A stretch of 64,000 nt of DNA from Escherichia coli. Lineage in GTDB: Bacteria > Pseudomonadota > Gammaproteobacteria > Enterobacterales > Enterobacteriaceae. The stretch is from the NCBI RefSeq assembly GCF_046105845.1, contig NZ_CP151004.1; one strand, 5' to 3'. Both the position numbers and the translations under genes were made by a program. The notes under the pieces are model-generated. The model saw only the letters and a program-made list of their open reading frames with translations. It ran no database searches and had not been told where the DNA came from. Numbering within the stretch: position 1 is the stretch's first letter; the number at the start of each line of letters is the position of its first letter. Shown piece after piece: positions 9,054 to 10,320 of this stretch.

Positions 9054-9578
9054 ATGACACGACATTGGAATTTAATTGCCCTATTATTCTCTATGATATC
9101 TATGTCATCCATTGCTGATGATACAACGCATGCAGGTGTTGTACGCATCGAAGGAATTATAACAGCAAAGACTTGTATTGTTGCCGATGAGTCTCAAAAT
9201 TTCACAGTTAACATGCCTGATGTTCCCAGTTATACGGTGAGAAATTCAGGGAGTGTTACTGAAAAAATTGGCTTCTCTTTAAAGTTAACCCGTTGTGGCA
9301 GTGATGTCAGTCATGCCAATGTCACGTTTGATGGAACACCAGTTAGTGAAGACGCGGCCCTATATAAACTGGAAGAGGGCTCAGTCGATGGGTTAGCACT
9401 GGCTATTTTTGATAACAACAGACAAAGTATTAGCAATGGTATAAAGAGTACAAGTTATGCCCTTACACCATTGGTAGATAATACATTGCATTTTTTTGCT
9501 GCTTATAAAGCTATAAAAAATGATGTACAACCAGGAGAAGCGAATGCATCAGTTTCCTTTATCGTCACTTATGATTAA
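9054..9578 (+). CDS. fimbrial minor subunit 2
   Basis: Signal peptide, pilin Cys motif (IITAKTCIV), C-terminal ...ASVSFIVTYD; RBS gagg upstream. Confidence 0.72.
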   Translation: MTRHWNLIALLFSMISMSSIADDTTHAGVVRIEGIITAKTCIVADESQNFTVNMPDVPSYTVRNSGSVTEKIGFSLKLTRCGSDVSHANVTFDGTPVSEDAALYKLEEGSVDGLALAIFDNNRQSISNGIKSTSYALTPLVDNTLHFFAAYKAIKNDVQPGEANASVSFIVTYD

Positions 9579-10320
9579 CGTGCTGATATGCATTTTAATA
9601 TGTTGCACAAATGCGCAGGCAGGAGTTGTTGTTGGCGGTACTCGTTTTGTTTACCCAGAAAAGCAGTCATCAATTTCGGTCGAGCTTAAAAATACTGCCA
9701 GTAAAGATATGCTGGTTAAAATTTCCGTGACACCTGATGATGGACGTCAGTTAAAAGGGACACTGGAATCCCAGCCTTTACTTCCAGATAAGGCGTTTAT
9801 TGCCACACCACCATTATTGGTACTTAAACAAGATAAAAATACCAAAATAAGAATCAATCGCGTGGGGGGGCAGTTACCTATAGATCGTGAGAGTTTATTT
9901 ATACTGAATGTTGCAGCGTTACCTGCTCAGGAACAAAACTCACAGCTCAAGAATGAAAATCAACTCCAGGTGGCTGTACGTAATAGGATGAAAATATTTT
10001 ACCGCCCGGAGACGTTATCAGGTAATCCACTTGACGCTTATCAACAGTTACGCTGGTCGCGAAAGAATGAAGCTGTCACCGTTTTTAACCCTACGCCCTG
10101 GTATGTGACACTCTATAATTTATCTATTGATGGTAAAAGCATAAATGGTGGCATGGTTGCACCGTTTAGTCATCGCCAACAGGATTGGTGTCAGCGGCAA
10201 GGATATTGTGAGATTAACTGGCAAACACTGGATCTTTACAATAATGCCTTACCCGTATGGAGCGTAAAATTAAATGTTTTACAAAATAATGTGATGAGTG
10301 CAGTAGCGATACATGGATAA
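9571..10320 (+). CDS. second periplasmic fimbrial chaperone (PapD-like)
   Basis: Signal peptide MINVLICILICCTNAQA, motifs GGTRFVYPEKQSSISVELKN, LFILNVAALPA and NRMKIFYRP; start ATG at 9571 overlaps the upstream pilin stop (tATGATTAA). The ORF track's upstream Met at 9520 is less likely. Confidence 0.82.
   Translation: MINVLICILICCTNAQAGVVVGGTRFVYPEKQSSISVELKNTASKDMLVKISVTPDDGRQLKGTLESQPLLPDKAFIATPPLLVLKQDKNTKIRINRVGGQLPIDRESLFILNVAALPAQEQNSQLKNENQLQVAVRNRMKIFYRPETLSGNPLDAYQQLRWSRKNEAVTVFNPTPWYVTLYNLSIDGKSINGGMVAPFSHRQQDWCQRQGYCEINWQTLDLYNNALPVWSVKLNVLQNNVMSAVAIHG

Follow-up and report, generated by a model that had tools for sequence, protein, structure and literature searches.

AufF, the second periplasmic chaperone of the Escherichia coli Auf fimbrial operon, and its possible role at low-copy tip subunits

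Introduction

Why does an Escherichia coli chaperone-usher operon encode two PapD-like periplasmic chaperones, and which subunits does the second one serve? FimC and PapD each act as the single chaperone for all subunits of their fimbriae, and in the Fim, Lpf and Sti systems one chaperone suffices to assemble a two-domain adhesin; a second chaperone is therefore not mechanistically required. The question arises at a locus in a 64,000-nucleotide stretch of E. coli DNA (contig NZ_CP151004.1, assembly GCF_046105845.1; hereafter the window, meaning the whole stretch that was analysed), in which a second chaperone gene stands directly before the gene for the adhesin. A preliminary description of this DNA took the placement as a sign that the second chaperone is specific for the tip adhesin.

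Auf fimbriae, to which this locus belongs, are common in extraintestinal pathogenic E. coli. Naming the chaperone of the adhesin AufG would open the way to a recombinant chaperone-adhesin complex, as with FimC-FimH, and from there to receptor identification. More broadly, the Auf/Ycb/Bcf family is well suited to studying why certain chaperone-usher pili require a second chaperone. The name and annotation of aufF and its status as second chaperone are already known; Ycb and Bcf-type operons have the same two-chaperone layout, and the CupB and 987P systems offer parallels. Here we add a sequence signature of the second chaperones, the restriction of the aufF-adhesin adjacency to Auf, and a hint that the two chaperones are unequally coupled to the major subunit.

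Results

The locus is an auf operon

The genes glgP (1343-3790) and glpD (11970-13490, minus strand) flank seven tightly packed genes on the plus strand (4273-11464; Table 1). Their order, from the major subunit through a chaperone, the usher, two minor subunits and a second chaperone to the adhesin, is the Auf layout. Because the site, gene order and gene sizes are those of the auf operon of E. coli CFT073, and because the literature supplies the naming, the gene under study is aufF, already named as the second periplasmic chaperone of this operon. In CFT073, the locus tag C_RS19920 carries the name aufF and the description "Auf fimbrial chaperone" (PMC5956150), and a 2026 paper credits the auf operon with two chaperones, AufB and AufF (PMC12928451). 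Nothing about aufF is anomalous; the gene is known and its biology is ordinary.

Table 1. Features of the auf operon and of aufF, in window coordinates
Feature	Position (nt)	Strand	Basis or remark
aufA, major fimbrial subunit, 234 aa	4273..4977	+	Pfam Fimbrial, E 2.1e-21; position matches C_RS19945 (aufA)
aufB, first chaperone, 250 aa, FimC/BcfB-like, without Cys pair	5098..5850	+	PapD_N, E 2.8e-41; PapD_C, E 1.6e-12
aufC, outer-membrane usher, 863 aa	5892..8483	+	Pfam domains PapC_N, Usher and PapC_C
aufD, minor subunit, YcbU class	8513..9046	+	Pfam Fimbrial, E 1e-27; best matches are YcbU-class subunits
aufE, minor subunit, YcbV class	9054..9578	+	Pfam Fimbrial, E 6.7e-18; best matches are YcbV-class; 3' end overlaps aufF
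Candidate ribosome-binding site of aufF, AGGAG	9533..9537	+	Six nt ahead of ATG 9544; read from the sequence
aufF, second PapD-like chaperone, 258-aa precursor	9544..10320	+	Pfam PapD_N and PapD_C
Predicted AufF signal peptide MHQFPLSSLMINVLICILICCTNAQA, cleavage ahead of GVVVGG	9544..9621	+	By alignment, Gly1 of mature FimC corresponds to the residue following AQA
AufF Arg34 (precursor), equivalent to PapD/FimC Arg8, subunit C-terminus anchor	9643..9645	+	Invariant alignment column
AufF 12-residue insertion in domain 1, about residues 66-77	9739..9774	+	Gap in FimC, AufB, ElfD and PapD
AufF Lys150 (precursor), equivalent to PapD/FimC Lys112, in RMKIFYRP, end of G1 donor strand	9991..9993	+	Invariant
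AufF Cys216-x5-Cys222 hairpin, domain 2, upstream of the INDYG-equivalent motif	10189..10209	+	Alignments
AufF C-terminal tail VLQNNVMSAVAIHG	10276..10317	+	14 residues past the FimC and AufB ends; not conserved
aufG, two-domain tip adhesin, 376 aa	10334..11464	+	Other in-frame ATGs at 10313 and 10331

The aufD reading frame is open from a GTG at 8474, and its tabulated start was mapped from annotation. AufG (376-383 aa) is taken as a two-domain adhesin because Pfam Fimbrial covers its C-terminal ~160 residues alone; the FimH and LpfD models of NCBIfam match it, but under their cut-offs. All four Auf subunits carry a penultimate Tyr at the C-terminus, so none of them is obviously excluded from AufB or from AufF. 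Across the auf operon, promoter-like sites numbered 26 against 25.9 in shuffled sequence and terminator-like sites 9 against 6.4, neither of which the scan counted as an excess; these counts are close enough to shuffled sequence to make the scan uninformative on a separate aufF-aufG transcript.

Relative to CFT073, the present operon is a divergent allele (60-81% nucleotide identity), whereas glgP is 94-99% identical. The AufF of CFT073 (c4208 / C_RS19920) and the one described here are both 258 aa, carry the Cys hairpin, overlap aufE alike and are collinear over their full length at 66% amino acid identity, and they differ in the C-terminal tail. The corresponding identities are 85% for AufA, 82% for AufG and 68% for AufE, which makes AufF the fastest-diverging protein of the operon between Auf alleles, and AufE and AufF the two most diverged. 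The aufG gene is intact here; the CFT073 RefSeq record has an internal stop. A complete auf operon is found in 677 of 5,426 complete E. coli genomes, chromosomal in every case and with an intact aufF ORF throughout, and the present divergent allele occurs in 228 complete genomes at a nucleotide identity of at least 95%. Apart from the operon, the window matches E. coli strain AST215 collinearly over its first 48 kb, with 98.5-99.1% identity.

Start and boundaries of aufF

No stop interrupts the aufF frame between 9520 and its TAA (10318-10320), and the ORF is intact. The gene had been described as starting at ATG 9571, which is in frame but lacks a ribosome-binding site. AGGAG precedes the ATG at 9544, and this ATG corresponds to the RefSeq start both in the nearest complete genome and in CFT073; from these sequence comparisons it, and not 9571, is likely the start, and the downstream position is abandoned here. 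Because aufF starts at 9544, its overlap with aufE (stop 9576-9578) is 35 nt. The reported overlap with the stop of the preceding pilin is thus real, but its length is 35 nt and not 8 nt. On the downstream side, the 10 bp described between the aufF stop and the adhesin ATG is found again as a 10-nt gap to the ATG at 10331; the annotated aufG start leaves 13 nt after the stop, with a GGAG at 10323-10326.

AufF retains the PapD/FimC fold and its functional residues

The identification of a second PapD-like chaperone gene holds: the product of the intact ORF matches PapD_N (104 bits, E 6.7e-30) and PapD_C (32 bits, E 1.4e-7), both over the gathering scores. Its sequence matches in the PDB are FimC (1e-28), SfaE, CupB2, YadV, Caf1M and PapD chains. 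An AlphaFold2 model built with 17 homologues comprises two beta-sandwich domains at a mean pLDDT of 80.8, and Foldseek aligns it with FimC chains at TM 0.86-0.89. Arg34 and Lys150 are invariant across alignments A1-A3 and align with Arg8 and Lys112 of FimC and PapD; the G1 strand LQVAVRNRMKIFYRP aligns with LQLAIISRIKLYYRP of FimC, and the F1-G1 loop is short (FGS type), about 2-3 residues off the FimC loop length. In fold, Arg8/Lys112 pair, G1 strand and short F1-G1 loop, AufF is therefore like FimC and PapD, while the domain-1 insertion is absent from both of those chaperones. As predicted from alignment and model, AufF is an intact PapD/FimC-fold protein with the Arg8/Lys112 anchor pair and a G1 donor strand.

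AufB shares these anchor residues and has a G1 strand resembling that of AufF. Over 189 residues the two chaperones are 34% identical, and at this level AufF is an old paralog rather than a recent duplicate of AufB. Two objections anticipated for the locus, that the chaperones might be near-identical duplicates and that the second might lack conserved PapD residues, accordingly fail, the first on this pairwise alignment and the second on the retention of Arg34 and Lys150.

A discrete subfamily of second chaperones

The presence of a Cys pair near the AufF C-terminus, noted from the first inspection, is borne out by Cys216 (nt 10189-10191) and Cys222 (nt 10207-10209), and it proved to be a mark of kinship. 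AufF homologues at 37-56% identity, from Hafnia, Klebsiella, Citrobacter, Buttiauxella and a very large E. coli cluster, all carry a WC-x5-C-x3-WQ motif together with a domain-1 insertion of roughly 12 residues. The same Cys-x5-Cys hairpin and insertion are found in YcbF of E. coli K-12 (elfADCG-ycbUVF) and in the last-gene chaperones of Bcf/Ycb-type operons, and both features of the AufF type are missing from AufB, ElfD, FimC and PapD. The Cys pair is invariant in the alignment of 17 subfamily members (17/17). As a motif (Cys-x5/6-Cys ahead of INDYG), it is shared by 20 of 21 second chaperones, while all first chaperones lack it, and AufB has no Cys beyond its signal peptide. When 1.84 billion cluster representatives were searched, the motif appeared in 23 of the 30 best hits as opposed to 3 of the next 118, a drop that marks the subfamily as discrete. 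AufF is 38-45% identical to second chaperones and 27-33% identical to first chaperones, and the pattern is reversed for AufB; likewise, the NCBIfam models nearest AufB are FimC and BcfB, and those nearest AufF are different. By these sequence criteria, AufF, E. coli YcbF and the last-gene chaperones of Bcf/Ycb-type operons across Enterobacteriaceae are members of a discrete and old subfamily. BcfG of Salmonella probably belongs here as well, as judged from two loci (L016 and L017) and NCBIfam best hits.

In the model, the Cys hairpin connects the final two long strands of domain 2, and the domain-1 insertion is modelled at a pLDDT of about 84-85. FimC has no Cys pair. PapD has a disulfide, Cys207-Cys212, that is a DsbA substrate (PMC8405906). 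Since the AufF pair lies before the INDYGG motif and the PapD pair after it, the two disulfide sites differ, and we rejected an equivalence between pairs on opposite sides of that motif. The AufF C-terminus is also longer than that of the first chaperone, as had been described, extending 14 residues beyond the end of AufB; this tail is modelled in part as an extra beta strand, residues 241-250 having a pLDDT of 89 and the final eight one of 68. Across the subfamily, the C-terminal tail varies in length and sequence. We considered the long tail as a functional feature and rejected it, since the two Auf alleles do not agree in it and other members either lack it or have a different one.

Gene order across related operons

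Reciprocal BLAST identifies Auf and Elf/Ycb as orthologous gene by gene. Identities are 44% for AufB-ElfD (44-47% over ElfD and other first chaperones), about 50% for AufC-ElfC, 31% for AufD-YcbU, 33% for AufE-YcbV, 38% for AufF-YcbF and 25-30% for AufG against ElfG-class adhesins. This orthology fits the report that Auf and Ycb are close relatives and mutually exclusive (Wurpel et al.).

The contexts examined were those of three homologues, the K-12 elfADCG-ycbUVF operon and 20 loci from a one-genome-per-species scan. Related operons follow one plan: major subunit(s), FimC-like chaperone, usher, large adhesin-like subunit, two to three small subunits and, last, the AufF-like chaperone. In each of the 25 related operons outside Auf, the fimbrial genes end with the second chaperone, which stands immediately behind the gene for the AufE/YcbV-class subunit; in 25/25 the adhesin gene lies directly after the usher, two to three genes upstream of the second chaperone, with the large adhesin-like subunit lacking a clear identification in two loci (L024 and L028). 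The Ycb/Bcf-type order thus ends on the second chaperone, whereas in Auf the adhesin gene has moved behind it. By this measure aufF departs from the last-gene position usual in its subfamily, since aufG comes after it, a variant of gene order that leaves the protein unaffected. The overlap between the YcbV-class subunit gene and the second chaperone gene is ~8 nt in many Bcf/Ycb-type loci, against the longer overlap in Auf.

The two-chaperone layout occurs in Hafnia, Citrobacter, Klebsiella, Enterobacter, Salmonella, Franconibacter and others. In the operons examined, a FimC-like first chaperone always accompanies the second chaperone of this subfamily, and the pair is intact in 20/20 Bcf/Ycb-type loci of the genome scan; three Morganella loci from the scan are ordinary first chaperones without the motif. 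Conservation of the second-chaperone lineage across so many genera argues for a non-redundant role.

These comparisons bear directly on the proposal that placement marks AufF as an adhesin-specific chaperone. What stands is that aufF encodes a genuine and old second chaperone. The placement itself carries less weight, as the order is found in Auf only and in none of the 25 related operons; because an adhesin gene after the chaperone is specific to Auf, the adjacency of aufF and aufG is weak evidence for a dedicated pairing.

Covariation of chaperones and subunits

We compared the seven orthologous proteins of 23 operons in a mirror-tree analysis, using partial Mantel tests on distance matrices with usher distance controlled. 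For the major subunit, the partial correlation was 0.50 with the first chaperone (p about 0.0005) and 0.14 with the second (not significant), and the bootstrap difference between second and first was -0.35 (95% CI -0.74 to -0.01), an interval that barely excludes zero and comes from ORF starts that were set mechanically. For the adhesin pilin domain, the second chaperone gave 0.47 (p about 0.0015) and the first 0.42, a difference of 0.03 (CI -0.25 to 0.28). The YcbU-class minor subunit gave 0.31 with the first chaperone and 0.41 with the second, and the YcbV-class subunit 0.27 and 0.32, respectively. With 23 operons, the two chaperones did not differ significantly for the adhesin, YcbU-class or YcbV-class partners, and the partial Mantel tests did not discriminate between the adhesin and the minor subunits as possible clients of the second chaperone. 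Covariation of this kind is weak evidence, because kinship among sequences inflates such correlations. Within that limit, the analysis suggests that the first chaperone tracks the major subunit and that the second does not.

Discussion

We lean, if only slightly, towards a division of labor in which AufF performs donor-strand complementation on at least one low-copy tip component (AufG, AufD or AufE) and AufB handles the bulk of AufA. AufF would be exported by Sec, and DsbA would oxidise the Cys pair of its hairpin. The chaperone would then complement newly exported pilin domains by donor strand and hand them over to the usher AufC, with AufB taking the abundant AufA and AufF the low-copy tip subunit or subunits. 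A literature search found no experimental client work for AufF, YcbF or BcfG. Precedents come from other two- and three-chaperone systems.

One precedent is provided by the 987P fimbriae (FasB/FasC/FasE), in which a single E. coli operon encodes chaperones for particular subunits: FasB reportedly serves the major subunit and FasC the adhesin. The 987P system differs from Auf in that it belongs to another fimbrial clade and has three chaperones. In Pseudomonas aeruginosa, one operon encodes the PapD-like chaperones CupB2 and CupB4, a pair about 32% identical that is comparable to AufB and AufF, and CupB4, like AufF, is encoded downstream of the usher and near the adhesin gene. CupB2 binds a peptide of the major subunit CupB1, and a different, non-redundant role has been proposed for CupB4 (PMC3031594). 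CupB4 was first proposed as the chaperone of CupB6; it is needed for assembly, yet it did not bind the CupB6 C-terminal peptide (PMC3031594). Deletion of cupB4 led to loss of surface display, as cited in the same source (PMC3031594). CupB4 may act with the TpsA-like CupB5, for which Auf has no counterpart.

A narrower reading, that the tip adhesin AufG is the sole client of AufF, which would stabilise the AufG pilin domain and deliver the complex that primes the usher, with AufB serving the remaining subunits, strikes us as rather unlikely. It draws on the start of aufG 10-13 nt past aufF, but that chaperone-adhesin adjacency is unique to Auf relative to the 25 related operons. The adhesin pilin domain is indeed the partner with which the second chaperone has its top partial correlation, and yet the first chaperone covaries with this domain nearly equally. 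Second chaperone and two-domain adhesin co-occur in Auf, Ycb and Bcf-type operons (the two loci without a clear adhesin aside), and both the reported FasC-FasG pair of 987P and the early CupB4-CupB6 proposal would be precedents, the latter countered by the failure of CupB4 to bind the CupB6 peptide. Between alleles, moreover, AufG is far better conserved than AufF.

It is quite improbable, in our judgment, that AufF is instead dedicated to the AufE/YcbV-class subunit, perhaps along with AufD, through translational coupling, with AufB serving the major subunit and the adhesin. The step from the AufE/YcbV-class subunit gene to the second chaperone gene is the sole adjacency found family-wide, and it often involves an overlap; compact operons, however, commonly overlap their genes, so this is not specific to partners. 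AufE and AufF are also the pair that diverges most between alleles, a pattern that may come down to greater local variability in this part of the operon. Covariation of the second chaperone with the YcbU-class and YcbV-class subunits points the same way, but the YcbV-class value is below that for the adhesin and statistically the same as with the first chaperone.

That AufF is redundant with AufB, as a back-up or dosage copy, or a decaying passenger with no specific client is very unlikely: it would suit the identical anchor residues and similar G1 strands of the two chaperones, the sufficiency of one chaperone for many related fimbriae and the rapid divergence of AufF, but it conflicts with the intact pair and subfamily-specific invariant features across many genera, with the intact aufF of every whole-operon E. 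coli genome, and with the abolition of surface display by cupB4 deletion in the Cup system.

A broader and more tentative possibility, to which we give somewhat less than even credence, is that the AufF/YcbF/BcfG clade is a mechanistically distinct class of chaperone in which the disulfide-stapled hairpin and the domain-1 insertion would confer tip-only clients or a part in usher priming. If such a tip-limited clade exists, two-chaperone fimbriae would split rod and tip assembly between paralogous chaperones. Many Bcf-type operons also contain a BcfH-like gene of the DsbA family, which is absent from Auf, and in those operons the encoded enzyme may oxidise the Cys pair.

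A divergent allele of the auf operon

Relative to the auf region of E. coli CFT073, the auf operon of the window shows only 60-81% nucleotide identity (300-nt windows; window 3790-11600 against the CFT073 region, L002), and each of its proteins is 66-85% identical in amino acid sequence to its CFT073 counterpart. In the same comparison the neighboring glgP is 94-99% identical, and identity drops abruptly, immediately 3' of the glgP stop. The operon of the window and that of CFT073 are deeply divergent alleles. The allele of the window is found at at least 95% identity in 228 complete E. 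coli genomes. This pattern suggests either an old polymorphism or replacement of the operon through recombination.

The tip adhesin gene aufG is intact in the window, whereas the RefSeq record of CFT073 lists it as a pseudogene (C_RS19915) with an internal stop, which we verified by translation. Published Auf phenotypes were obtained with strain CFT073. Downstream, the CFT073 aufG-glpD spacer carries three hypothetical genes, and the sole trace of these in the window spacer is a remnant of one of them (77% identity). In strain AST215, IS621 is inserted in this spacer.

The major subunit AufA, at 234 aa, is unusually long; major subunits of the ElfA class measure about 180 aa. In AufA, approximately 36 residues separate the predicted signal peptide from the Pfam Fimbrial match, which begins at residue 62. 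The aufD reading frame (minor subunit) is open from a GTG at 8474, inside the usher gene, whose final 10 nt it overlaps. In the nearest genome, RefSeq places the aufD start at the position equivalent to 8513, and the CFT073 annotation of aufD is 10 residues longer.

A DsbA-family gene beside the second chaperone

About 12 operons of the Bcf type carry a BcfH-like gene of the DsbA/thioredoxin family directly 3' of the gene for the Cys-pair second chaperone. It is shortened or decayed in about five further Bcf-type operons, and it is absent from the Auf, Ycb, Hafnia and Citrobacter operons. This arrangement may tie the operon-encoded disulfide enzyme to the hairpin disulfide of the chaperone, or to the subunits.

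Coordinates of features in the window and in related loci
Feature	Location
aufA	window 4273-4977
aufG-glpD spacer	window 11465-11970
Remnant in spacer	window 11630-11803
CFT073 aufG	L002:7460-8590
BcfH-like gene	L005:9903-10832
BcfH-like gene, other examples (about 11 further Bcf-type loci)	L008, L010, L016, L024

Remainder of the window

Positions 11972-64000 are ordinary E. coli core chromosome, in which no unusual feature was seen. This part is collinear with strain AST215 up to 48322 (glpD/glpEG, rtcRBA, malT/malPQ, gntT, feoABC, ompR-envZ and pckA through igaA). Beyond this point, the sizes of the ORFs fit the genes expected there: mrcA, hofQ, aroB, damX, dam, rpe, gph and trpS.
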